Positions 2,887 through 43,923 of a stretch of DNA of 46,594 nucleotides are shown here, in pieces. Each line of letters opens with the position of its first letter. Position 1 is the stretch's first letter. Under the pieces are notes generated by a model that was given only the letters and a program-made list of their open reading frames with translations, was not told where the DNA came from and searched no databases. Origin of the DNA: Thermoplasmata archaeon (GTDB lineage Archaea; Thermoplasmatota; Thermoplasmata; Thermoplasmatales; Thermoplasmataceae); the NCBI GenBank assembly GCA_021816745.1, contig JAKAWY010000003.1:1-46594 (forward strand), written 5' to 3'. The translations under genes were made by a program, and so were the position numbers.

Positions 2887-2958
2887 AGGATAGGTAGGGA
2901 TTTGAACCCTAGTAAATGGGATCTGCAGTCCCACGCATAACGTCTCTGCCACCTATCC
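2887..2958 (-). tRNA. tRNA-Cys (anticodon GCA)
   Basis: The reverse complement folds as a cloverleaf. Acceptor stem GGATAGG/CCTATCC; anticodon stem TGGGA/TCCCA with loop CTGCAGA (GCA); T-arm TAGGG-TTCAAAT-CCCTA. Discriminator T, no encoded CCA. Confidence 0.8.
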
Positions 2959-22117: not shown

Positions 22118-22190
22118 TGGGTCTGCCCGGATTTGGACCGGAGTCTCCAACTCCCGAAGCTGGAAGGATACCAGGCTACCCCACAGACCC
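22118..22190 (-). tRNA. tRNA-Pro (anticodon CGG)
   Basis: The reverse complement GGGTCTG…CAGACCC-A forms a 7-bp acceptor stem. Anticodon loop TTCGGGA (CGG); T-arm TCCGG-TCCAAAT-CCGGG. Followed on its own strand by a T6 tract. Confidence 0.75.
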
Positions 22191-24969: not shown

Positions 24970-25117
24970 GAAATTGCTTGTATATAAAGTTGCACAGTAC
25001 TGCCCGAATCACTATATATTATAAAGTTAAATTACTATGAGTAATATCTTTCTGAAATGTTTTCTCGGAAAGTATGGAAAAAATATTAAAGTGTTATGAA
25101 TAAAGGTACACCGAACT

Positions 25118-25412
25118 TGATCGGGGGGGTAGGCGCCCTCTGTGACCCAAAGTCTATAGGTGGGGACGACTTCCTGGTGAGGCCAACCTGGCCTCTGTGA
25201 AGCCTTTAGGGATCCATGAAATTTCGAACCAGTGGATCGGAGGTTATCTGATCATGATTCACAGGTTTCATGGTCTTATATCTGTCTGAAAATCCGCCAG
25301 GTCCGGAAGGGAGCAACGGTAATCGGAACTTACGATGCTTCTGGAGAGCGGGGTCGAGTGAACTGAAGGATAAACTTCACAGGACGTCAGGCCCGAACCA
25401 GGAACGTTCGGT
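25118..25412 (+). ncRNA. signal recognition particle RNA (7S/SRP RNA); boundaries approximate
   Basis: GC-rich structured ~300-nt segment in an AT-rich intergenic region. It contains the domain IV/helix 8 consensus GCCAGGTCCGGAAGGGAGCAACGGTA (25293..25320). The G-rich 5' end GGGGGGGTAGGCGCCC and the 5'/3' complementary arms (CCGAAC…GTTCGG) fit an archaeal SRP RNA. Confidence 0.7.
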
Positions 25413-25425
25413 TTGAAGTGTTAAC

Positions 25426-26559: not shown

Positions 26560-26989
26560 AGGCATCCCTGCTTCCCCTCATCTCCCCCTGGTAAAAATTT
26601 TCCAGCCTGTGGGTAATGGTATATCCTTCTTTTCTATACATTGAAAGGGCTGATTCATTGAAAACCCTGACTTCCAGTATGGATTCAGTAAATCCATGAT
26701 TCCTCATGGCATCTTCAATTACATGCAAAAGTGCCTTTCCAATACCTTTTCCCTGAAATTCTGGAGAAACACAAATACTCTCTATATCCGCAGATTTTTC
26801 ACTAATGCCAATGGCCATGACATATCCGGCAGGCCTGTCATCCAGATATGCAATTATAGTCATATCCCCGCTTTCAAGAAATGAATCTATAATCATTTCC
26901 ATATCATAAGCGTCTATTCCAAAGGCTTTCTGCTCCAGATAATGGATGGTATCCATATCTTTATGCGTTGCAGGTTTGAAAGTAAGCAT
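26534..26989 (-). CDS. GNAT-family N-acetyltransferase (RimI-like)
   Basis: Acetyl-CoA binding motif QGKGIGKALL within a 151-aa protein. Convergent with the HD gene, overlapping it by 26 nt. Confidence 0.8.
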   Translation of the reverse strand: MLTFKPATHKDMDTIHYLEQKAFGIDAYDMEMIIDSFLESGDMTIIAYLDDRPAGYVMAIGISEKSADIESICVSPEFQGKGIGKALLHVIEDAMRNHGFTESILEVRVFNESALSMYRKEGYTITHRLENFYQGEMRGSRDAFRMKKTLQ

Positions 26990-27035
26990 ATTATCAACTC
27001 AAATATTAGTAATTACTAAAGATATTTATCTTATC

Positions 27036-27767
27036 ATGAACTTTCCAGGTATGTTGAAAGAATCCGGCTTATTTGAAAATTTCAGTTCGGAGCTTATGAA
27101 AGGAAGGCCAGTTTTAATTTTTGACCACGAAAAGAGGGAAGGTGAGACTGACATGATCTTTGCCTCTGAAAAGGTGGACTTCAATTCAATCAAGACTCTC
27201 AGGAAGGATGCCGGCGGACTTGTATGCACCACAATAAAGGAAGGACTGGCTGATATTTTAAGTATGCCATTTCTTGAAGAACTTTACAAAAGGTACCTTC
27301 CATATGGAAACGAGGCTTCTTTTTCCGGTGACATGAGATATGACAGCCATTCATCCTTTACATTTACCATTAATTCCAGGAATACCTTTACAGGAATCAG
27401 TGACAAGGATCGCTCCATCACTGTAAATGAACTTGTAGGATTTATGAAAGGAATAGGGGAATTTAAAGAGCCGGTACATGAATTCTATGGTAAATTCAGG
27501 ATTCCAGGACATGTTTCTCTTTTAATTGCAAGGGAGGGTTACTTCAGTAAAAGAAGGGGGCATACCGAACTTGCAACCTACCTTGTAGAGTCCTGTGGCC
27601 TGTTTCCTTCAGCGACCATTGCCGAAATGCTAGCTGATGACGGAAATGCCATGAAAATGAATGAGGCCATGGATTACGCAGATAAGAATGGGTTAATGTT
27701 TATAGAGGGGAAAGATATAATCGCCCGGTGGGCAGATGAAAAAGGTAATGGCATCGGGGGTTTTTGA
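27036..27767 (+). CDS. ribB: 3,4-dihydroxy-2-butanone 4-phosphate synthase
   Basis: REGETDMIFA and RRGHTE motifs of archaeal DHBP synthase. The start is taken at the internal Met (MNFPGM), which avoids overlap with the GNAT gene and sits ~20 nt after an AT-rich box (AAAGATATTTAT). Confidence 0.8.
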   Translation: MNFPGMLKESGLFENFSSELMKGRPVLIFDHEKREGETDMIFASEKVDFNSIKTLRKDAGGLVCTTIKEGLADILSMPFLEELYKRYLPYGNEASFSGDMRYDSHSSFTFTINSRNTFTGISDKDRSITVNELVGFMKGIGEFKEPVHEFYGKFRIPGHVSLLIAREGYFSKRRGHTELATYLVESCGLFPSATIAEMLADDGNAMKMNEAMDYADKNGLMFIEGKDIIARWADEKGNGIGGF

Positions 27768-28161
27768 TATATTACACCTAGGTCACATCCACTATCTTGA
27801 GGAATCCAGAAAACAGGGCGACTTTCTTGTGGTGGTTGTAGCGTCTGATTCCACTGCATCCAGAAATGGAAAAAAGATCCTGTTTTCACAGGAAAGCAGG
27901 AAGAAAATGGTAGAATCCCTTAAGGTGGTTGATGAAGCCATAATCGGTGGGGAAGGCAATATCTTTGATACAATTTCTTTAGTAAAGCCAGATGTCATCA
28001 CACTGGGTTTTGATCAGAAATTCGATCCTGAGGTGATAAAGGAAGAAGCAGGAAAAAGGGGTTTGAATCCTGAAGTATACCGGTGCAGCCCCCTGGACTC
28101 ACTTGAACCCTTTGGAACCAGGAAGATAAGGAAGAAGTTGCAGGAAGAAGGGGCCAGATGA
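27736..28161 (+). CDS. ribL: archaeal FAD synthetase (FMN adenylyltransferase)
   Basis: Nucleotidyltransferase motif SGVFDILHLGH (GxFDxxHxGH), 141 aa. The start may be the Met at ~27748. Confidence 0.8.
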   Translation: MKKVMASGVFDILHLGHIHYLEESRKQGDFLVVVVASDSTASRNGKKILFSQESRKKMVESLKVVDEAIIGGEGNIFDTISLVKPDVITLGFDQKFDPEVIKEEAGKRGLNPEVYRCSPLDSLEPFGTRKIRKKLQEEGAR

Positions 28162-28652
28162 AGATTATCGGGATAGCAGACACCACATTTGCAAGATATG
28201 ACATGGCAAAATCAGTCATGGATGAACTGGGGAAAACTGGTACAGGTTTCAGGACAATTCGTTATACCGTTCCCGGCATCAAAGATCTTCCGGTGGCCTG
28301 CCTGAATCTTTTCCAGAAGGATGCAGATATTGTGATTGCACTGGGGATGCCAGGTCCAAAGCCAGTGGACAAGATTTCTTCTCAGGTAGCCTCCATGGGT
28401 CTGATGGAAGTACAGGTAAAGACTGGAAAGCACATCATTGAAGTGTTTGTGCATGAGGATGAGGCATCAAATGACAGGGAATTATCATGGCTATGTGACA
28501 GGAGGGCCAGGGAGCACGCCTTAAACACATACAACCTGATTTTCAGGCATGAACTGTTAATGGAAAACAGCGGGAAGGGCTTGAGACAGGGATTCAGGGA
28601 TGCAGGGGACACGGAAGGGATAAATGGGGAAAGTAGTGCCAGAAGGCACTGA
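28158..28652 (+). CDS. ribC: archaeal-type riboflavin synthase
   Basis: N-terminus MKIIGIADTTFARYDMA is the conserved start of the lumazine-synthase-like archaeal riboflavin synthases. Confidence 0.85.
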   Translation: MKIIGIADTTFARYDMAKSVMDELGKTGTGFRTIRYTVPGIKDLPVACLNLFQKDADIVIALGMPGPKPVDKISSQVASMGLMEVQVKTGKHIIEVFVHEDEASNDRELSWLCDRRAREHALNTYNLIFRHELLMENSGKGLRQGFRDAGDTEGINGESSARRH

Positions 28653-28654
28653 GG

Positions 28655-29077
28655 GTGAAATATATGAAAATAGGTATTGTAGTATCGGAATACAACTATG
28701 ACATCACTATGATGATGTTGATGAGGGCAAAGGAGCATGCGGAATTTCTGGGAGCGCAGGTTGCAAAGGAAATCAAGGTACCAGGGACCTTTGAGATACC
28801 GCTGGCAGTCTCGAGACTGCTTAAATCAGGCAGCGTGGACGGAGTGGTGACACTTGGTGCAGTCATGCAGGGCGAAACTGATCATGATGACATAATCATG
28901 CAGAATACAGCCAGGAAGATAATGGACATTGGAGTGGCTGAAGGAAAGCCCGTTTCCCTTGGAATATCGGGACCAGGAGAGACCAGGTTGCAGGCAGAGG
29001 CCAGAATTGAGATGGCCAAGGATGCTGTGGAATCTGTTGTTAAAATGATCAAAAGAATGGAGTCAAATGGAATCTGA
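28655..29077 (+). CDS. ribH: 6,7-dimethyl-8-ribityllumazine synthase
   Basis: KIGIVVSEYN and VPGTFEIP (GAFE(I/L)P) motifs. 140 aa. Confidence 0.9.
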   Translation: MKYMKIGIVVSEYNYDITMMMLMRAKEHAEFLGAQVAKEIKVPGTFEIPLAVSRLLKSGSVDGVVTLGAVMQGETDHDDIIMQNTARKIMDIGVAEGKPVSLGISGPGETRLQAEARIEMAKDAVESVVKMIKRMESNGI

Positions 29078-29250: not shown

Positions 29251-29270
29251 CCTATAAAAGAATATATACA
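29251..29270 (+). promoter_or_regulatory. TATA-box candidate for the 29291 operon
   Basis: CCTATAAAAGAATATATA lies ~30 nt upstream of the ATG at 29291, after a 210-nt AT-rich intergenic region. Confidence 0.35.
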
Positions 29271-29290: not shown

Positions 29291-29836
29291 ATGGTTGCTG
29301 ACAATTCCCCTGATATCAGGGGTACTGTAGAAGACAACAGGGGATTGCTCAAGAAGATTCAGATTATTGTTCCCGGGTTTTCCGGATACAGGGAAAAGGA
29401 GGATCTCAGGGCTGCTGATGAACTACTCCGTTCACAGGTCTCCGGGATTTTTTCAGAAGTACTATCATCACTTGATTCTATGAGGCAGCAGCTCAGCATC
29501 TGCTTCAAAACTGCAAACCTTATGGCATTGGCCTCCACCATATCAACGCTACAAACCATCCAGGGTGACATACTGCATGCACAGCAGGGTTATTCTGGAA
29601 TATCTCCATCCATCAGAATCAATGATCACAGCCTTGATAAAATCTATGAATTTGACTATGGTTTCGTAAAGTCTGGCAAAGAAATGAAAGATTCAATATC
29701 ATCAGCGGGAGATGCATGTAGCATGGGAGATCAGATCCTGTCAGAACTTCTTTCAAAAATAAGGGTATCAGCAACTCAGTGCAGGAATTCCTGGTCGCAG
29801 AGAATGAATGAAATTGAAAATATAAAGGTGTCATAA
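29291..29836 (+). CDS. hypothetical protein (predicted mostly alpha-helical), first gene of the SPFH/zinc-ribbon module
   Basis: 181-aa ORF ending 2 nt before the next gene. No motif recognised. Confidence 0.45.
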   Translation: MVADNSPDIRGTVEDNRGLLKKIQIIVPGFSGYREKEDLRAADELLRSQVSGIFSEVLSSLDSMRQQLSICFKTANLMALASTISTLQTIQGDILHAQQGYSGISPSIRINDHSLDKIYEFDYGFVKSGKEMKDSISSAGDACSMGDQILSELLSKIRVSATQCRNSWSQRMNEIENIKVS

Positions 29837-29837
29837 T

Positions 29838-31001
29838 ATGTTTGGAAAGAAATCTGAAAAGGTTCCATACAAGGGTGGAAGTGTTGCAGGATCCATAACT
29901 ATTGCATGGGAAACACAGTTCAAGGAAAGCAATGCCATGTGGAAGGTTCCAAGGCTCATCAGGCTTAATGATAACATAGTTGTAAGAGAGGATGAAACAG
30001 CTGTGTTTTTCAGGGACGGAAAAGTACTGACCTACTTCGACAAGCCTGACAGGTATGCACTGACTGATTTCAATGCACCTGTGGTGGGTGGCCTCCTAAA
30101 ATTCTTTACCGGAGTGCAGCAGCAGGCTGAGGTATACTACATCCAGAAAAGGATACTGGATGGGAAATACGGGAGCCAGAGCCCATACCAGTTCATGGAT
30201 CCGACGTTTGGGATCGTAAACTTAAGGGTGTTTGGAGAATTCAGGTGGCAAATTTCAGACCCTGCATTATTCATAAACCAGTTCGTTGGAACATTCAATG
30301 CAGTGGGATCAGGGGATGTGGAGGCAAGGCTTAAGGATCAGATAGTGGTTCTGATTTACAATGTAATAGGAAAAATGAAGGACAACGGGGTGAAGGTCAC
30401 TGACATACCCTCAAACCTTTTGAACATAGAACAGGCCGCTCTTGGACTGGCCCCCCAGAATTTCCAGCAGTACGGCATTACCATTTCTAAATTGCAGGGA
30501 ATAAACATATCACTGCCTGATGAGGTTCAGAAGGCCATCGACACGAGATCAGAAATGTCTGTGCTGGGTGTTAATTATCTCCAGTACCAGGCAGGCCAGG
30601 CCATGGTTGACGCATCAAAGAATCCAGGCGGAATGGCAGGCCTCGGAGCGGGATTGGGAGTAGGCATGGGTGCAGGTGCCGGAATGGGTTACGCCATGTC
30701 TGGCGGAATGGCAGGACAGATGCAGGGCCAGGGGGTAACATGCCCTAAGTGCGGAACCATTGCAACTGCAGGTTCAAGATTCTGCCCTTCATGCGGCAAT
30801 GATCTCAGCAAGCCACAGAATAAACCAGTTCAGCCCATGACAAAGTGCCCTTCATGCGGAACAGATATGCCTGAAGGAACAAAATTCTGCCCCAATTGTG
30901 GTCAGAAGATGGCACAGAATGAGAAGGTAAAGTGCCAGAAGTGCGGAACTGAATCAGCATCTGGCACAAAATTCTGCCCTAACTGCGGAGAAAAATTGTA
31001 G
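29838..31001 (+). CDS. SPFH/Band-7-like (YdjI-type) domain protein with Gly/Met-rich linker and four C-terminal zinc ribbons
   Basis: The N-terminal ~250 aa carry AVFFRDGKV, AEVYYIQK and WQISDPALF, which match my recollection of the Band_7_1 (YdjI-like SPFH) family. Next comes GGMAGLGAGLGVGMGAGAGMGYAMSGGMAGQMQGQG. Then four CPxCG…FCPxCG zinc-ribbon units. Confidence 0.55.
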   Translation: MFGKKSEKVPYKGGSVAGSITIAWETQFKESNAMWKVPRLIRLNDNIVVREDETAVFFRDGKVLTYFDKPDRYALTDFNAPVVGGLLKFFTGVQQQAEVYYIQKRILDGKYGSQSPYQFMDPTFGIVNLRVFGEFRWQISDPALFINQFVGTFNAVGSGDVEARLKDQIVVLIYNVIGKMKDNGVKVTDIPSNLLNIEQAALGLAPQNFQQYGITISKLQGINISLPDEVQKAIDTRSEMSVLGVNYLQYQAGQAMVDASKNPGGMAGLGAGLGVGMGAGAGMGYAMSGGMAGQMQGQGVTCPKCGTIATAGSRFCPSCGNDLSKPQNKPVQPMTKCPSCGTDMPEGTKFCPNCGQKMAQNEKVKCQKCGTESASGTKFCPNCGEKL

Positions 31002-31012
31002 GAGTTGAAAAA

Positions 31013-32026
31013 ATGTATTGTATAAAATGTGGATCGGAAAACCCGGATAACGCAGCGTTCTGTTATAAATGTGGAACAAAGATCGGTAATGTGCAGGCTG
31101 GAACCCAGGGAACAACTTCAACCCAGCCAGGGTCTCAGAGGGAGACCATAGCCAGTTCAGGTGTAACTGAACTTAAATGCCCTGGATGCGGAGCACCAAT
31201 CAAGCCTCAGCAGGGAGAGGCAGTGTTGACATGTGAGTATTGCGGGAAAAGCATCAGCCTGGGGAATTCAGGATGGCAGAATGTTTCAAAGCATTCCATG
31301 CTTTCGCTGCAGATAGATGATTCTGAAAAACTAATCCAGATCATCAAAAGACACATGGATCATGGGCTCATGGAAAGGCATTCCTTCGAGGAATCCAAGG
31401 AGGAAAGCTCTGAACTGTCATATGTTCCATACTGGATTGTACCTGTGAGTTCCAATTCAAGTTACAAGTTCCTTGACATGGGTGCAGAAATTGGCACTCT
31501 GGCCATGGATGCTGCCATCATGGGTGCAGCTGGAGAAATGGGAAGAGGCAGAGGCATGGGCGGAGGAATGATGGACGGTTTCCTCATTGGAGGAGTAATG
31601 GGTGGCGGAATGGGTGGAAACAATGCCATAAGGGGTGCGAGCTATTCACACAACTATGAGTTGCCCGTGGTCTCACTGAAAGGAAGAGAACACCTGCAGC
31701 CCATATCTTATTCCTTCAACCTTGGAGCAAGAAAAGATTTTGACAAATCCAAGATTGTGAACAGCATCAAGGTGCTCAATGGGGACATTGATGAAGATAC
31801 AGCAAGGACTCTGGCAAAAACCTACGCAGACCAGGAACAGGAAAAAGCCATCAGGGCCAGGCACCACCATCTTGAAGCGCTGCAGACACAATCCTCTCCA
31901 GGTACACCCGAACTTCTCCATGTGCCAGTATGGGTTGCCAAATATACTGGAAAAAAGAGATCATTCACTTTTGTAATCGATGGTTCCAACGGTGCCGTGA
32001 TCAAGGCAGATGAGCTGAAACATTAA
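31013..32026 (+). CDS. zinc-ribbon protein with Gly/Met-rich segment, third gene of the module
   Basis: N-terminal CIKCGSENPDNAAFCYKCG and CPGCGAPIKPQQGEAVLTCEYCG zinc ribbons. Internal GEMGRGRGMGGGMMDGFLIGGVMGGGMGGNN low-complexity segment similar to the one in the upstream protein. 337 aa. Confidence 0.5.
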   Translation: MYCIKCGSENPDNAAFCYKCGTKIGNVQAGTQGTTSTQPGSQRETIASSGVTELKCPGCGAPIKPQQGEAVLTCEYCGKSISLGNSGWQNVSKHSMLSLQIDDSEKLIQIIKRHMDHGLMERHSFEESKEESSELSYVPYWIVPVSSNSSYKFLDMGAEIGTLAMDAAIMGAAGEMGRGRGMGGGMMDGFLIGGVMGGGMGGNNAIRGASYSHNYELPVVSLKGREHLQPISYSFNLGARKDFDKSKIVNSIKVLNGDIDEDTARTLAKTYADQEQEKAIRARHHHLEALQTQSSPGTPELLHVPVWVAKYTGKKRSFTFVIDGSNGAVIKADELKH

Positions 32027-32035
32027 TCACTCATC

Positions 32036-32060
32036 CCATTTTTTTCGGAAAGTTTTTTTG
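32036..32060 (+). terminator. oligo-T archaeal terminator candidate
   Basis: Two T7 runs (32039..32045 and 32053..32059) immediately after the stop of the 31013 gene. Confidence 0.4.
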
Positions 32061-32150
32061 CATTTTTAAAAATCATCAATATTTTGTACCGGAATTCCCC
32101 TCATTTTTCATCCTGAATAAGACAGAAATATCTTTACATAAGGAGTTGTA

Positions 32151-33404
32151 TTGTATTTATATATGGCCAGGACTGTAATGAAGATTCCACCTTCACTATG
32201 TCTTAAATGCAGGGGAGGCTCTATGCTTTGTGGTCTATCATACTGTCCCATACAGGTCAAACTCACCATGAAATCAGTATCCACAAAGCTTACCGGCAAT
32301 TCTTTTTCCGGATCTTCCCCGCCTGGAATATTTGTGGGAAGGTATGGATATCCAAATATCAAGCTGTATCCATCTGCCCCTCCTGAGCATGGTGATACCG
32401 GTTCCTACGAGAATCCACATGAATGGCTCAACATGCCCATGGAACAGTTTCTTTCCATGCGTCTTTCCATGGCCAGGGGAAGTGTTTCGGTGAAGGTTTC
32501 CGATGCCGTTTCACCTGACAGATTATACCAGGAAATTCAGGCCATGGCACTGTCGGGAAAATCAGTGGATGTGGAGATGGATTTTGAAAAACAGCTTTCC
32601 GGCGGTGATGCAATTCTTGATGAACATGTACCACCCATGGGGCCATCTGCTCCAATCAAAAAAATTGAAATAGGAAATTCGGCACCTAAGAGGAGTGTGG
32701 ACAGGGTTCACAGCGACACGGACATGAAGGCCATGGATGCCATGGACTATCTCTACAAGTCCGGTATTGATGTTTATGAAATTTCCAAAATACTTAGCGT
32801 AGGAGCCATAGGGGAAGGAAAAGCAAGGAAGGCGGTTCCCACCAGGTGGTCAATCACTGCAGCAGACAAGAATGTCTCTGATCTGCTGGTGGACAAGGTA
32901 AAGGATCTGCCACAGATTGACAAGTATTATGCCTATGTCAGGAAAACACCGGGAAACCTGTTCATGGGAATTCTTGTACCATGGGTATGGATTTATGAGT
33001 GGGGTGAGGCATGGTTCCCGGGAAGCACATGGAATCAGTGGAGCACCGATTCCTTTGTGGAAATAGATCATGAGGATTACAATGGGAGAAAGACATATCC
33101 GGACATAGGTGGTTGTTATTATTCAACCAGGCTCTCCGTGGCTGAGAAATTTCTTGAAATGGGAAGAAGCGGCGGGGCCATAACGTGGAGGGAGATATAT
33201 CCAGGTTTCAACCTGCCAGTGGGTGTATGGTATGTCAGGGAGAACATGAGACAGCTGTTCAACGTTAAACCTGAGGTTTTTGACACACTGGAGGATGCAG
33301 TTGCATATATTACACAATTCATGCTGGTGGATCCTCCCAGGTGGAAAGAGAAATCCTATGTGATTCCTTCCCTGAAATACAACAACCTATGGAGATTCAT
33401 GTGA
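32151..33404 (+). CDS. Nre-family (NreA-like) archaeal DNA repair protein, putative
   Basis: N-terminal Cys cluster CLKCRGGSMLCGLSYCP (C-x2-C-x6-C-x4-C), ~400 aa length and an extreme C-terminal degenerate PIP-like NNLWRFM fit my recollection of the Nre family. The start may be Met5 or Met10. Confidence 0.45.
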   Translation: MYLYMARTVMKIPPSLCLKCRGGSMLCGLSYCPIQVKLTMKSVSTKLTGNSFSGSSPPGIFVGRYGYPNIKLYPSAPPEHGDTGSYENPHEWLNMPMEQFLSMRLSMARGSVSVKVSDAVSPDRLYQEIQAMALSGKSVDVEMDFEKQLSGGDAILDEHVPPMGPSAPIKKIEIGNSAPKRSVDRVHSDTDMKAMDAMDYLYKSGIDVYEISKILSVGAIGEGKARKAVPTRWSITAADKNVSDLLVDKVKDLPQIDKYYAYVRKTPGNLFMGILVPWVWIYEWGEAWFPGSTWNQWSTDSFVEIDHEDYNGRKTYPDIGGCYYSTRLSVAEKFLEMGRSGGAITWREIYPGFNLPVGVWYVRENMRQLFNVKPEVFDTLEDAVAYITQFMLVDPPRWKEKSYVIPSLKYNNLWRFM

Positions 33405-33408
33405 TAAC

Positions 33409-34245
33409 ATGATAATAAGGGAATACACTGCATCCAGTGCCTTAAACAGATCCGGGATGAAGGAGCTTGAATATACACTGAACCCGTATTCAGGATGTTT
33501 TCATGGTTGCGTTTATTGTTATGCCATAGACATGACTTCGAAAAAAGAGGCTGCCGATAACTGGGGTGAGGTAATCTATGTCAAGACGAATCTTCTTGAA
33601 CTTCTAAAAAAGGAGGTCATTGGAAAGAAGAGGGGAATGGTGGGAGTCTCCAGCGTTACAGACCCATACCAGGCAGTGGAATCAAAATACAGGCTGACCA
33701 GGGATGCAGTCTCCATTCTCCTGAAGAATGGATTCCGTGTCACAGTCCAGACAAAATCACCCTTGGTGGCCAGGGATGTGGATTTGTTTTCAAGATACAG
33801 GGAAACATGTGATGTGGGGATGACCATTACCACCATGGACAGTAAAGTGGCACTATCCATGGAACCACATGCACCTTCACCGGTTTCCAGGGGAATGGCT
33901 CTGAAAAAAATGTCTGAATCCGGCGTCAAACTCTGGATATTTGCAGGCCCCATTATCAGGGGAATAAACGACAGCAGGGAAGGAATAGAGAAGATATTCA
34001 ATCTTGCCAGCGAAACCGGTGCAAGAATCATCTATGACACATATGTCCCGTATAAAGGTGCTTCGGAACTCATGTCCAGAACTCTGAACATGGAAGGGAA
34101 GAGCAACACTTACTACACTGATAAAGCATGGCAGGAAAGCATCAGGAACACTTTCCTTGAATTTGGAAGTTCATATAACGTCAGGATAAATTCAGAGTCT
34201 GAAGAGTGGTTAATGGAACTCAGGGAAAATTTCCGCACCTTCTGA
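33409..34245 (+). CDS. radical SAM protein of the SplB/DNA-photolyase-like family (COG1533-like)
   Basis: NPYSGCFHGCVYCYA matches the characteristic SplB-type C-x3-C-x2-C context. 278 aa. Confidence 0.7.
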   Translation: MIIREYTASSALNRSGMKELEYTLNPYSGCFHGCVYCYAIDMTSKKEAADNWGEVIYVKTNLLELLKKEVIGKKRGMVGVSSVTDPYQAVESKYRLTRDAVSILLKNGFRVTVQTKSPLVARDVDLFSRYRETCDVGMTITTMDSKVALSMEPHAPSPVSRGMALKKMSESGVKLWIFAGPIIRGINDSREGIEKIFNLASETGARIIYDTYVPYKGASELMSRTLNMEGKSNTYYTDKAWQESIRNTFLEFGSSYNVRINSESEEWLMELRENFRTF

Positions 34246-40472: not shown

Positions 40473-40575
40473 CCCGGCTTAGCTCAGTTGGTAGAGCGAC
40501 GGACTGTAGAGGGTAGTACGGGGAGTATAATCCGCCGTAATCCGTAGGTCTCTGGTTCAAATCCGGAAGCCGGGA
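40473..40575 (+). tRNA. tRNA-Tyr (anticodon GTA) with ~30-nt intron after position 37
   Basis: Acceptor CCCGGCT/AGCCGGG, D-arm GCTC-AGTTGGTA-GAGC, anticodon stem ACGGA…TCCGT with loop CTGTAGA. The stem is interrupted by AGGGTAGTACGGGGAGTATAATCCGCCGTA (about 40510..40539). T-arm TCTGG-TTCAAAT-CCGGA. Confidence 0.8.
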
Positions 40576-40745
40576 TCCCAAATAATTGAAAATTAGTTTG
40601 AATAACACTGAATTCATCAATCATAACACTCAACGTAAAATTTTAAAAAAATCCTGTTTGTATAAGCGATTGTAAACTATAATTTCTCACATCTTTAATT
40701 TAATGAAACTTTCATTCAAAATTGTATTAATCTGAAGGGTATTAT

Positions 40746-41390
40746 TCAAAATTTTAGAAAATTTTTTAAATTTTCTAGCATAGTTTTATAGTTGTTTACG
40801 TATTTTTCAACGTCAGTTAAAAGATTTTCTGAGTTATTTGGATAAATATCGTAAGCAAACCACGTTGACAGGAGTTTTATTGCAATTGGATATATCTTTA
40901 TTTTTAATAAGATGGCCATTAATAGAATTTCTTTTTGACTAAAAACAATTTTTATTATTGAAGGTTTTTCCAAATTTATTGTATATCTCTTTACCCATTT
41001 TGCTGTTTTTCTAACAAGATGATTTACAGAATCCTCATCTTGGTTTATGGAGTTTGCAATAAGAATCATTCTTCTAGTTGAACTCATTGGCAATAAGATA
41101 AAATAATTATTCTCCCACAAATATTGTGAAAGAGTCATAAGGGCAGTTCTTTTATTACCATCAACAAATGGATGTAATCTGATTGCCAATTCCAATAAAG
41201 ATGCACCCTTTTCATAAATATTATCATAAATCTCTATTCCGGAAATAATAAGATCAGGTTTCTTGGCAATTTCATCAATAAATCCTTCGTTTATTATGCC
41301 GGGCTCTGTATTAGAGTTCTCTTTGCTGACATAATACTCATGAATATTTATAATATCTTCTTTTTCTAACAATTTGCTCAAGAAAATCAA
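40746..41390 (-). CDS. Doc/Fic-family toxin-like protein
   Basis: Doc-type active-site motif HPFVDGNKRTA in a 214-aa ORF that starts with TTG. Lies in an AT-rich segment downstream of tRNA-Tyr. Confidence 0.7.
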   Translation of the reverse strand: MIFLSKLLEKEDIINIHEYYVSKENSNTEPGIINEGFIDEIAKKPDLIISGIEIYDNIYEKGASLLELAIRLHPFVDGNKRTALMTLSQYLWENNYFILLPMSSTRRMILIANSINQDEDSVNHLVRKTAKWVKRYTINLEKPSIIKIVFSQKEILLMAILLKIKIYPIAIKLLSTWFAYDIYPNNSENLLTDVEKYVNNYKTMLENLKNFLKF

Positions 41391-41760
41391 AAAAAATTAA
41401 AGTTCTTTTAATCTCTCGAAGATAAACTTGTTTGTAGGTATCTCCATAAATCTTTCTATGAAATCTGATTTTTTCATGTTAGGATTTTTTACCAATCTGT
41501 TTTTCATAGGTACTCAAAAATTATATTATAAAGAATGGTATAAACATTTGTATTTTCAGTTCTGCTCTTTTCTTATAGAATAGTTGGGCTTCGGAAAATG
41601 ATCACTAGGTAAGCGAGCATTTCTCCGGAATAGATTCACATATGCTTGATTAAGTTACTCAATTTTTATTTATCTCAAATAATTCTTACATTTTTTATAT
41701 GGAACATAATGCTCTCCCTCTTTGGTAAAGTATAATATATAGACACATGCTCACATTAGA

Positions 41761-42405
41761 ATGGGTGGAGTAACAACATACTATAACAAATATGTAAATG
41801 AGATGAAGGAAAAGCAAAAAAAGAGATTAGCACCTTTACAGTTGGTAAGTAAAATAGAAGAATTTCTCGTCAAGGAATTCGCCAATTTTGTCATTTCAGA
41901 ATCCTCTGGAAAAGACTTTGTGTTAACAAATTATGGTTGCAAAGGTGAACCGAGAATAGATATGTGTTTTATTACAGGAGAACATAAAAAACCATATATC
42001 TATGGCATGTTGGAGGCAAAGTATTTTAGAAATATTCACAGAATTACTGAAGTAAGCAAGGCAAGGGATGAATTAAGTGGAGGTCTAAATAGTCTTCATA
42101 AGCAGATCGGCAATTACCCAAAGGATAAACATTGCGATTTGGAAGTAAGACTCAATTCCAAGGAGAATCGTATTTACGGTATGGTATTTGCTTCTCATGT
42201 AACATACAAGGAAAAAAAGGATTCTGATTGCAATGAGTTTTTTGATATTATTTGTAATAAGGCCAAATCCAAGTTTGTGTTTTACGATCTGAAGGATCAG
42301 AATCCTCGATTAGATACAGTATATGAAAGAGAGGAAGTCCAGGTTCTTGGCAATACTGCATATGCAACTTTAAAAGTTGGGTTATGGGTAAAAAAACAAG
42401 AATAA
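41761..42405 (+). CDS. hypothetical protein with possible PD-(D/E)xK nuclease-like core
   Basis: 214 aa. The PRIDMCFI…IYGMLEAKYF spacing resembles a D…(D/E)xK restriction-endonuclease-fold motif. Weak. Confidence 0.35.
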   Translation: MGGVTTYYNKYVNEMKEKQKKRLAPLQLVSKIEEFLVKEFANFVISESSGKDFVLTNYGCKGEPRIDMCFITGEHKKPYIYGMLEAKYFRNIHRITEVSKARDELSGGLNSLHKQIGNYPKDKHCDLEVRLNSKENRIYGMVFASHVTYKEKKDSDCNEFFDIICNKAKSKFVFYDLKDQNPRLDTVYEREEVQVLGNTAYATLKVGLWVKKQE

Positions 42406-42621
42406 ATTAACACTTGAAACGATTTTTGTGGAAATACCTCTAATAGACACCCTATATTCATTATTTATTCTCATTTCAACGCATGTTACAATTTGTCATT
42501 GACCGGGAAATTGTTTCATCCCGTTTTGCAATATCTAGTATTATCTTGTTTCCCGTGATTACATTTATCTTTTCTTTGATTAATTTTATATACATTCAAG
42601 CAGTTATACTTTCGTAAAATT

Positions 42622-42855
42622 ATGAATTTTTGGGAAACTTTGACTTTTGGATTTGTTATGCTGGGATCATTTTGTTTAATGCTTGGTGTTTTCCTCTCGA
42701 CCTGGGCCTATAACGGGGGCATTAACGTACCCATTGGTGTCTATGCGGGGACTTCATTTTTTAACGATGGAATGGGTCTATTTTTTGTATTTTTGGTTGC
42801 TGGACTACTTATAAACCTGCTCACAGGGAAGAATTTCCATAAAACATACCCTTAA
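42622..42855 (+). CDS. small two-helix membrane protein
   Basis: 77-aa ORF with two hydrophobic helices, in an AT-rich region. Could be spurious. Confidence 0.3.
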   Translation: MNFWETLTFGFVMLGSFCLMLGVFLSTWAYNGGINVPIGVYAGTSFFNDGMGLFFVFLVAGLLINLLTGKNFHKTYP

Positions 42856-43232
42856 GTTTAATTTTTAAAGCAATTGTATTTGGAATAACCTTGAAATAGG
42901 GATTATTCAATCAATTTTTCCGTTCAACAATTCATTTTTTAAAATTAATTGAAATAATTTCACAAATTAAACGAAGATGTAAGGTATTAGAATCGGATTA
43001 GTTTCTTAAATTCTTATGCATTTCAGGGAGTATTTATTTGTATCAAGAAATATTTATTAAAAATTAAAATTAAATATTTTAAATTTAGAATAAAGCGGTT
43101 GCTCCTAATTCTGCAATTGAGTTTTGATTTAATTAATATTATTTTTTATTTATGATATTTAAATTATTCAGTGTTACACTTGATTAATAGAACATTTAGC
43201 AACTCTTTATTGCCTCACATTTAAGGTTATTA

Positions 43233-43245
43233 GGTTATATTTTGT
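43233..43245 (+). promoter_or_regulatory. TATA-box candidate for the respiratory cluster
   Basis: GTTATATTTTG lies ~26 nt upstream of the ATG at 43264, at the end of a 400-nt AT-rich intergenic region. Confidence 0.3.
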
Positions 43246-43263
43246 TCCTATATTTTTAACCTG

Positions 43264-43923
43264 ATGCCAATGAATGAGAAAACATTCTACGCCATTATTT
43301 TAGCCATTGTCGTCGTAGGCGGCATAGGAATAGGAATAGCATATGAGCACCCAGCATCTGTTTCTTCAGGTTCTTCTGCAACACCAGGTCCTTACCACCT
43401 GACATTAGCAGTATTTCCACATCTGGTATACAATGCAACACAGACAAACGAACCCGCCTTCTTTGTAATCAGCAATGGAACTTTACAATCATCTGTCAAT
43501 ATTACAGTTCCATCGCATGTGTTGATTGATCTTACAATTATCGATTATGACTCAGGACCTGGAACAGGAACTCCCTCTTCATACCTCAACGTTACCGGTA
43601 CTGTCGGAAATGTAGTATATCTGACGAACAGAACACTTGCAACCGGTGGAACCACTGCTGTAGGAACTCAGAACATAACCGTTCTTGGAAACACCACCAT
43701 GAAGATTTCAACAATGTCAATCAATGATATTGCACACACCTTTACAGTTGGAGGGTTAGATGGAATTGGGCAGGATCTAAATATACCGGTTGGGCATGGT
43801 GTGGAATTTACACAGTTCTATGCTAACAATACGGGAAAATATATGTGGATGTGCCATGTTCCATGTGGTCCTGCTGCAATGTCCACCATGGGATGGATGA
43901 TGGGTAATTTCTACGTTAGCTAA
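43264..43923 (+). CDS. membrane-anchored cupredoxin-like copper protein (sulfocyanin-like / CuA-like)
   Basis: N-terminal anchor helix FYAIILAIVVVGGIGIGIAY. C-terminal Cu-site-like segment AHTFTV…MWMCHVPCGPAAMSTMGWMMG containing His, two Cys and Met residues. Many N-x-S/T sequons indicate an extracellular location. Confidence 0.5.
   Translation: MPMNEKTFYAIILAIVVVGGIGIGIAYEHPASVSSGSSATPGPYHLTLAVFPHLVYNATQTNEPAFFVISNGTLQSSVNITVPSHVLIDLTIIDYDSGPGTGTPSSYLNVTGTVGNVVYLTNRTLATGGTTAVGTQNITVLGNTTMKISTMSINDIAHTFTVGGLDGIGQDLNIPVGHGVEFTQFYANNTGKYMWMCHVPCGPAAMSTMGWMMGNFYVS

Follow-up and report, generated by a model that had tools for sequence, protein, structure and literature searches.

A candidate archaeal operon combining SamI- and SamG-like proteins with an uncharacterised helical protein family, and lacking PspA and SamH genes

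On contig JAKAWY010000003.1 of a Thermoplasmata archaeon (GenBank assembly GCA_021816745.1), the 46,594 nucleotides (nt) of which are hereafter called the window, three adjacent genes at positions 29291-32026, designated A, B, and C, probably constitute an operon for an SPFH membrane module of the SamGHI (YdjGHI) type, in a variant that works without PspA, a reading that we hold with moderate confidence. On sequence grounds, two of the assignments are solid: B as an orthologue-grade relative of the soluble SPFH scaffold YdjI/SamI, and C as a relative of the zinc-ribbon/YpeB-like partner of YdjI, YdjG/SamG. Judged by its gene content, the archaeal version keeps I and G, dispenses with H and PspA, and adds A, a predicted helical protein of an uncharacterised family. 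The organisation of membranes is a task of SPFH proteins (stomatin, prohibitin, flotillin, HflK/C) in every domain of life. To our knowledge, Bacillus subtilis is the sole organism in which the soluble Band_7_1 branch has been investigated, and the role of the branch there was first tied to PspA. The features of the module are as follows, in window coordinates.

29253-29260 (+), TATAAAAG, and 29262-29269 (+), ATATATAC: two TATA-like AT-rich motifs, candidate archaeal promoter (read from the sequence)
29291-29836 (+): gene A, 181 amino acids (aa), from a family of uncharacterised proteins about 175 aa in length (profile searches, AlphaFold2 model)
29838-31001 (+): gene B, 387 aa, YdjI/SamI-type soluble SPFH protein (Pfam, BLASTP)
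29958-30560 (+): Band_7_1 SPFH domain of B, residues 41-241 (Pfam)
30621-30731 (+): Gly/Ala/Met-rich segment of B, residues ~262-298, GGMAGLGAGLGVGMGAGAGMGYAMSGGMAG (sequence, alignments)
30732-30998 (+): three tandem four-cysteine zinc ribbons of B, residues 299-387 (Pfam DZR, Zn_Ribbon_1, Zn_ribbon_3; sequence)
31013-32026 (+): gene C, 337 aa, YdjG/SamG-like (hhalign)
31016-31252 (+): two zinc ribbons of C, residues 2-23 and 55-80, with a low-complexity linker between them (Pfam)
31322-31474 (+): first alpha/beta domain of C, residues 104-154 (model, hhalign)
31478-31618 (+): Gly/Met-rich, moderately hydrophobic insertion of C, residues 156-202 (predicted local distance difference test score, pLDDT, below 50 in the AlphaFold2 model; hydropathy)
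31628-32020 (+): C-terminal YpeB/PepSY-like alpha+beta domain of C, residues 206-336
32039-32067 (+): three oligo-T runs (T7, T7, T5), candidate archaeal terminator (read from the sequence)

The Band_7_1 domain of B was recognised by PF13421 with 122.4 bits against a cut-off of 24 (E 2.6e-35), the match covering model positions 11-210 of 211. For comparison with Bacillus, the pspA-ydjGHI locus of Bacillus stercoris was located via a published ydjG primer (PMC8581546), and its YdjI was aligned with B over the full length by BLASTP (E 1e-15, 23% identity), the Gly/Met linker and the last ribbon included. Because of this Pfam match together with the full-length alignment to YdjI, B was assigned as a YdjI/SamI-type soluble SPFH protein, in line with the original prediction, which had been made from the bare sequence on the strength of the motifs AVFFRDGKV, AEVYYIQK, and WQISDPALF, all of them present in B. 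The four zinc ribbons that it had counted in B were revised to three CxxC...CxxC units within residues ~299-387, Zn_Ribbon_1 likewise giving three stretches. A segment equivalent to GGMAGLGAGLGVGMGAGAGMGYAMSGGMAG, namely GAGVGLGAGVGMGAAMAQ, was kept in bacterial Band_7_1 proteins regardless of the C-terminal module that they carry. In a crude hydropathy test, the Kyte-Doolittle maximum of B (19 residues) was 1.11 and fell in the Gly-rich linker, as compared with 2.1 for the transmembrane (TM) helix of YdjH. A sequence search of B against the PDB returned a zinc-finger match only.

A profile of C built from 30 sequences matched Bacillus YdjG with an hhalign probability of 97.6% (E 4.5e-12), C residues 2-145 corresponding to YdjG residues 6-145. 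The match spanned both ribbons, which align to YdjG 6-75, and the first alpha/beta domain as far as the strand YVPYWIVPV in C and YIPFWMF in YdjG, and the C-termini of the two proteins were linked by a second, weak hidden Markov model domain. The two ribbons that had been predicted for C were recovered by Pfam at residues 2-23 and 55-80, and an alpha+beta domain related to YpeB follows them. YdjG has been described as consisting of two zinc ribbons, then a YpeB-related domain, and then a TM segment (PMC11237479). The AlphaFold2 model of C (pLDDT 78.5), comprising two ribbons, an alpha/beta domain, the low-confidence insertion 156-202, and a confident domain of one helix and four strands, agrees with this description, the anchor excepted: no C-terminal TM helix was found in C, which ends in a PepSY-like beta sheet. 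The sole hydrophobic stretch of C is the insertion 156-202, with a Kyte-Doolittle value of 1.05 (1.3-1.6 in its relatives, and 1.56 for the TM helix of YdjG), and this insertion is a candidate monotopic membrane anchor or co-assembly segment. At least 349 homologues of C were found, the source labels on a few of them being Cuniculiplasma, Thermoplasmataceae, Methanomassiliicoccales, and Nitrososphaerales (40-70% identity).

No Pfam family was matched by the A of the window at E ≤ 1. Against NCBIfam, A hit NF047596, the LIMLP_15305 family of Leptospira, with 28.3 bits (E 1.4e-6; residues 28-171 on model positions 26-169 of 175), a score far under the equivalog cut-off of 210. The same model was matched by all 50 of the 50 sampled A-family members over nearly its whole length (best E 3.7e-20), and because all of these relatives match it, the resemblance is best taken as superfamily-level homology; by this profile evidence, A is a distant relative of the LIMLP_15305 family and not a member of it. 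The sole paper naming the LIMLP_15305 locus tag lists it just as the neighbour of a small RNA and gives no function. A profile search of 1.84 billion cluster representatives retrieved 1329 relatives of A at E ≤ 1e-3 and 737 at E ≤ 1e-10, almost all of them 170-180 aa long, and a protein identical to A has been annotated in a metagenome-assembled genome labelled 'Candidatus Thermoplasmatota archaeon'.

AlphaFold2 modelled A as a four-helix bundle (pLDDT 75.5, predicted template-modelling score 0.71) with helices predicted at residues 39-70, 74-96, 112-137, and 147-180. The first 37 residues are conserved, yet of low confidence in the model. Conserved positions were P28, G29, G32, Y33, R40, D43, and R47 towards the N-terminus, the loop HAQQGYSG (96-103) including G100 and Y101, L115, Y119, and D122 in helix 3, and R171 in helix 4. 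Searches of the fold against PDB libraries gave generic fold matches only, and a search of the PDB sequences with the A profile gave just designed helical bundles at E>0.003.

The original prediction had suggested that A might be a divergent PspA/ESCRT-III-like partner, and this suggestion did not survive the profile, Pfam, and fold searches. The 50-sequence A profile was compared with Bacillus PspA at an hhalign probability of 0.1%, and neither PspA_IM30 nor Snf7 was among the 25 Pfam families most matched by the 50 A-family members (E ≤ 1). As for ESCRT-III, the predicted bundle is compact, with helices of 23-34 residues and no long alpha1-alpha2 hairpin in the model. YdjH, with its TPM domain, was rejected likewise (hhalign 0.1%), as was TelA, the helical protein encoded upstream of a Paracoccus Band_7_1 gene (0.3%).

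In some A-family representatives (P0148, P0159, P0160, and P0183), a zinc ribbon precedes the A domain at the N-terminus, and in three of the four the two are connected by a Pro-rich linker. One 266-aa protein, P0251, looked as if A residues 1-82 had been fused to Band_7_1 model positions 68-210; it was discounted as Rosetta-stone evidence, being probably the product of a deletion or an assembly artefact.

The three open reading frames lie on the + strand. Their coordinates and lengths had been given correctly in the original prediction, as had the 11-nt gap between B and C, while the gap between A and B is 1 nt instead of 2 (the stop codon of A ends at 29836 and the ATG of B begins at 29838). 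Shine-Dalgarno-like sequences, GGTG before B and GGAG before C, stand 8-10 nt ahead of the respective ATG codons. Upstream of A, an AT-rich spacer of 213 nt follows lumazine synthase, the last riboflavin gene; the TATA-like motifs sit 22-38 nt upstream of the A ATG, and the first oligo-T run begins 13 nt past the C stop codon. Both of these candidate signals, predicted earlier, were thus read in the sequence. The spacers of 1 and 11 nt, the internal Shine-Dalgarno-like motifs, the single upstream AT-rich spacer, and the downstream oligo-T tracts suggest that A, B, and C form one operon, for which our moderate confidence is shared with the explanation as a whole.

The order A-B-C was found in eight of the eight other archaeal contigs that hold the whole module. 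Each look-up from an archaeal homologue of C recovered the trio, in contigs labelled Nitrososphaerales (L006), Methanomassiliicoccales (L007), Cuniculiplasma (L008), and Thermoplasmataceae (L098), as well as in L099 and L100; starting from A, the same trio was recovered in L001 and L005. The genes flanking the trio were unrelated between the contigs in each case, and since the same order recurs in eight archaeal contigs with unrelated flanks, the arrangement is not due to chance. The upstream genes of these loci all matched the A profile at E ≤ 2e-46. Co-conservation of the three genes, by which the original prediction had proposed to be judged, thus extends across Thermoplasmatota and beyond. 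Across the eight trios, identity to the window proteins was 35-45% for A, 63-76% for B, and 43-55% for C. In a more distant contig (L003), A and B are preceded by a shorter C-like gene. The B of the window is 64-66% identical to those of L006, L007, and the unlabelled L099, the corresponding values being 36-39% for A and 44% for C. The high identity of B between lineages suggests that either the SPFH protein is very strongly constrained or the module has been transferred horizontally.

The pairing of A with a Band_7_1 gene was found outside the archaeal trio as well. Some A-family proteins are labelled Chloroflexota/Anaerolineae by NCBI, and A lies directly upstream of a Band_7_1 gene in a Chloroflexi-labelled contig, in a contig carrying PlsX and FabF, and in a 1.1-Mb scaffold of the Joint Genome Institute (JGI). 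A metagenome scan with the branch of A that holds the Chloroflexota-labelled proteins yielded 80 loci, probably mostly bacterial, and the count of downstream neighbours was restricted to the 63 of these 80 loci with at least 400 bp of downstream sequence. A Band_7_1 gene followed A on the same strand within 186 nt in 61 of the 63; of the two exceptions, one has its Band_7_1 gene 846 nt away and the other has none within 818 bp. The A family is accordingly a near-obligate upstream neighbour of this type of Band_7_1 protein in archaea and bacteria.

A YdjG-like gene is usually absent from these A-Band_7_1 loci. Instead, 25 loci carry a different upstream accessory gene of about 172 aa (L036 3458-3976, L010 4406-4924, and 23 others among L010-L095), the product of which has two N-terminal TM helices, a middle part resembling a winged helix-turn-helix (HTH) domain, and a C-terminal CPxCG...CPYCG ribbon similar to the second ribbon of C. 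In the bacterial version, it is probably this protein that serves as membrane anchor. The SPFH proteins of these loci (L016-L095) always keep a segment of the GAGVGLGAGVGMGAAMAQ type. Of the 48 complete Band_7_1 genes, 27 terminate in a double zinc ribbon after this segment; no ribbon is present in the remaining 21, the majority of which close with an HTH_17-like or a SHOCT-like module. The Band_7_1 C-terminus looks like a swappable output or adaptor module. Across lineages, zinc ribbons were met on every type of component, that is, the C-terminus of B, the N-terminus of C, the N-termini of some A proteins, and the accessory protein with two TM helices. On the 1.1-Mb JGI scaffold (L011 6613-9274), the A-B dyad is followed by three ribbon-bearing YdjG-like paralogues (255, 396, and 199 aa) in place of a single C.

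Compared with the pspA-ydjGHI (pspA-samGHI) operon of Bacillus subtilis, B follows the plan of YdjI/SamI in its Band_7_1 SPFH domain, Gly/Met-rich linker, C-terminal ribbon, and lack of a TM helix, and C follows that of YdjG/SamG in its two N-terminal ribbons and YpeB/PepSY-like domains; in both systems, the genes are adjacent and co-directional. On the other hand, the trio lacks PspA and YdjH (the TPM-domain protein) and begins with an unrelated helical protein of 181 aa, its order being A-I-G as against pspA-G-H-I. B has three ribbons where YdjI has one, and C has an internal Gly/Met-rich segment where YdjG has a C-terminal TM helix. In Bacillus, YdjI requires YdjG and YdjH for localisation to the membrane and then recruits PspA, and two-hybrid work named YdjH, which contacts YdjI and PspA directly, as the likely membrane anchor (PMC8581546). 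More recently, SamI was described as restraining signalling by SamGH, a phenotype for which PspA is dispensable, and loss of SamI was described as causing global transcriptional changes via SamGH, according to a preprint (bioRxiv 10.64898/2026.02.06.704340).

Other SPFH contexts share fewer traits with the trio. The A-Band_7_1 dyads of Chloroflexota and uncultured prokaryotes have A upstream and an SPFH protein with the Gly/Ala/Met segment, but they mostly lack the YdjG-like gene, about a third of them carry the accessory protein with two TM helices, and the SPFH protein may end in an HTH_17-like or SHOCT-like module. Among Proteobacteria, Paracoccus ferrooxidans pFER4 (L096 1626-6344) pairs a Band_7_1 gene with a gene for a YdjG-like zinc-ribbon protein (hhalign 97.2% against C), but has no A-family gene. 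TelA, DUF2927, Band_7_1, and YdjG-like genes stand there in a row, TelA and DUF2927 being upstream, a context that ties the SPFH-YdjG pair to a helical protein of the toxic-anion-resistance type, not to A or PspA. The Band_7_1 gene of Ralstonia lies in a polyamine context, DUF350-SPFH-DUF4178-speD, with no A alongside. The SPFH-NfeD operons (stomatin/QmcA-YbbJ) and HflK/C likewise combine an SPFH-fold protein with a dedicated small partner gene; A, however, is predicted to be a soluble helical bundle and not an NfeD membrane protein with an oligonucleotide/oligosaccharide-binding fold, and B is devoid of the membrane anchor and long coiled coil of HflK/C.

Taken as an operon for a PspA-independent SamGHI-type module, the trio might operate as follows. 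B would oligomerise beneath the cytoplasmic membrane, like other SPFH proteins, and C would tether or regulate it via the Gly/Met-rich insertion and zinc-ribbon contacts. A would be produced in fixed proportion to B by translational coupling. Two conserved regions of A, the N-terminal segment and one end of the helical bundle, would make direct contact with B, and A would control the assembly or output of the SPFH scaffold, thereby filling the place held by YdjH and PspA in Bacillus. The physiological role would be the sensing or buffering of membrane stress, and a function in membrane stress or repair may be proposed from homology to the Bacillus system. Beyond the trio, we tentatively consider, with somewhat less than even confidence, that the A family may represent a new class of obligate Band_7_1 SPFH partners, akin to NfeD for stomatins, in an ancient and widespread PspA-free A-SPFH dyad of archaea and bacteria, the A-SamI-SamG trio being its fullest form and zinc ribbons serving to glue the components together.

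Several observations weigh against the assignment of the trio to a SamGHI-type membrane module. None of A, B, and C has an unambiguous TM helix (maximum hydropathy 1.05-1.11), and because a clear TM helix is lacking, the membrane association of the module is something that we infer. The module is devoid of YdjH, the likely membrane anchor in Bacillus, and phmmer detected no relative of PspA or YdjH among the open reading frames of the window or at any archaeal trio locus. C is absent from most of the bacterial A-B loci, which makes it an accessory part and not a core one. The proposed direct contact between A and B has its basis in the tight, near-universal adjacency of their genes, and the flanks of the trio (riboflavin synthesis, Nre, radical SAM) hint at no function.

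These points call for a comparison with other explanations. In the one closest to the original prediction, the trio would be a rearranged PspA-YdjGHI system, in which A, as a divergent PspA/ESCRT-III-like polymer, is recruited by the SPFH protein and then repairs the membrane. That A is all-helical in the model and stands first in the operon like pspA in Bacillus, and that B and C are true homologues of YdjI and YdjG, would fit such a system, but the negligible hhalign score against PspA, the absence of PspA_IM30 and Snf7 from the most matched Pfam families, the lack of any Pfam match for the A of the window, and the compact predicted bundle without the long hairpin render this explanation very improbable. 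A signalling device fares better and is nevertheless unlikely. Here, the SPFH protein would hold modules that bind nucleic acids or regulators (ribbons, HTH) at the membrane and free them upon stress, A being a regulated switch or anti-regulator. The interchangeable C-terminal modules of the Band_7_1 proteins beside A (double ribbon, HTH_17-like, SHOCT-like helix), the bacterial accessory protein combining two TM helices with a winged-HTH-like domain and a zinc ribbon, and the transcriptional effect of SamI loss are consistent with it; against it, there is no known DNA or RNA target, the ribbons are of the short DZR type, which often mediates protein contacts, and no transcription factor gene is conserved beside the archaeal trio.

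The SPFH protein might alternatively act as the regulator of a membrane protease or of a quality-control machine, on the pattern of HflK/C-FtsH or stomatin-NfeD, with A and C as substrate adaptors. Such regulation is the best documented prokaryotic SPFH role, according to the discussion in the same preprint (bioRxiv 10.64898/2026.02.06.704340). However, no gene for NfeD, FtsH, or another protease is conserved in the module, A and C carry no protease signature, no NfeD signature was found in either of them by Pfam, and B differs in build from HflK/C-type proteins as described above, which leaves this explanation decidedly improbable. Least probable of all is that the trio is an antiviral defence system or the cargo of a mobile element. 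SPFH and zinc-ribbon domains do occur in some defence systems, and the 63-76% identity of B across archaeal phyla could reflect horizontal transfer. Yet PADLOC was blank save for zinc-ribbon noise, the PHROGs matches were to zinc ribbons only, tblastn of A against 72,556 plasmids gave no match, and the flanks consist of housekeeping genes that differ from genome to genome, with no integrase or defence island present.

In the window, the trio lies directly downstream of a riboflavin/flavin adenine dinucleotide gene cluster (26946-29077, +), which comprises DHBP synthase, a cytidylyltransferase-like gene (RibL-type), and two genes of the DMRL_synthase fold (riboflavin synthase and lumazine synthase); on its other side stand Nre (32163-33404) and then a radical SAM gene (33409-34245). 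An archaeal signal recognition particle RNA (RF01857, 142 bits) was located at 25109-25413 (+), which confirms that the window is archaeal, and genes for tRNA-Cys and tRNA-Pro at 2887-2958 (-) and 22118-22190 (-), respectively. A further tRNA of 103 nt at 40473-40575 was called by Rfam and not by ARAGORN, and is hence probably intron-containing. It borders a stretch of low GC content at 40600-43250 (0.31-0.35 versus 0.40-0.48 around it), the open reading frames of which had no Pfam match (40746-41138, -; 41761-42405, +; 43264-43923, +), and this stretch may be an element integrated at the tRNA gene.

Part of this picture was known beforehand, in that the families of B and C each have a characterised Bacillus member and the architecture of B is reflected in Pfam and in comparative-genomics papers on the phage shock protein response. 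What appears to be new is the A family with its near-obligate Band_7_1 pairing, and the occurrence of a PspA-free and YdjH-free A-I-G trio in several archaeal lineages. In open-access full text, no paper was found on the A-Band_7_1 pairing or on the A-I-G trio, and nothing was found on the gene context of Band_7_1, PF13421, or COG4260.

The conservation of SamI and SamG across several archaeal lineages, at loci devoid of PspA and SamH, supports the view, put forward recently, that PspA is not required for the SamGHI core to act. A is a concrete candidate for the missing partner or regulator of Band_7_1 scaffolds, and a gene context can now be named for a family of more than 1000 clusters not covered by any Pfam model. 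To wall-less acidophiles, among them the relatives of Cuniculiplasma, a membrane-stress module of this kind may be of physiological relevance.

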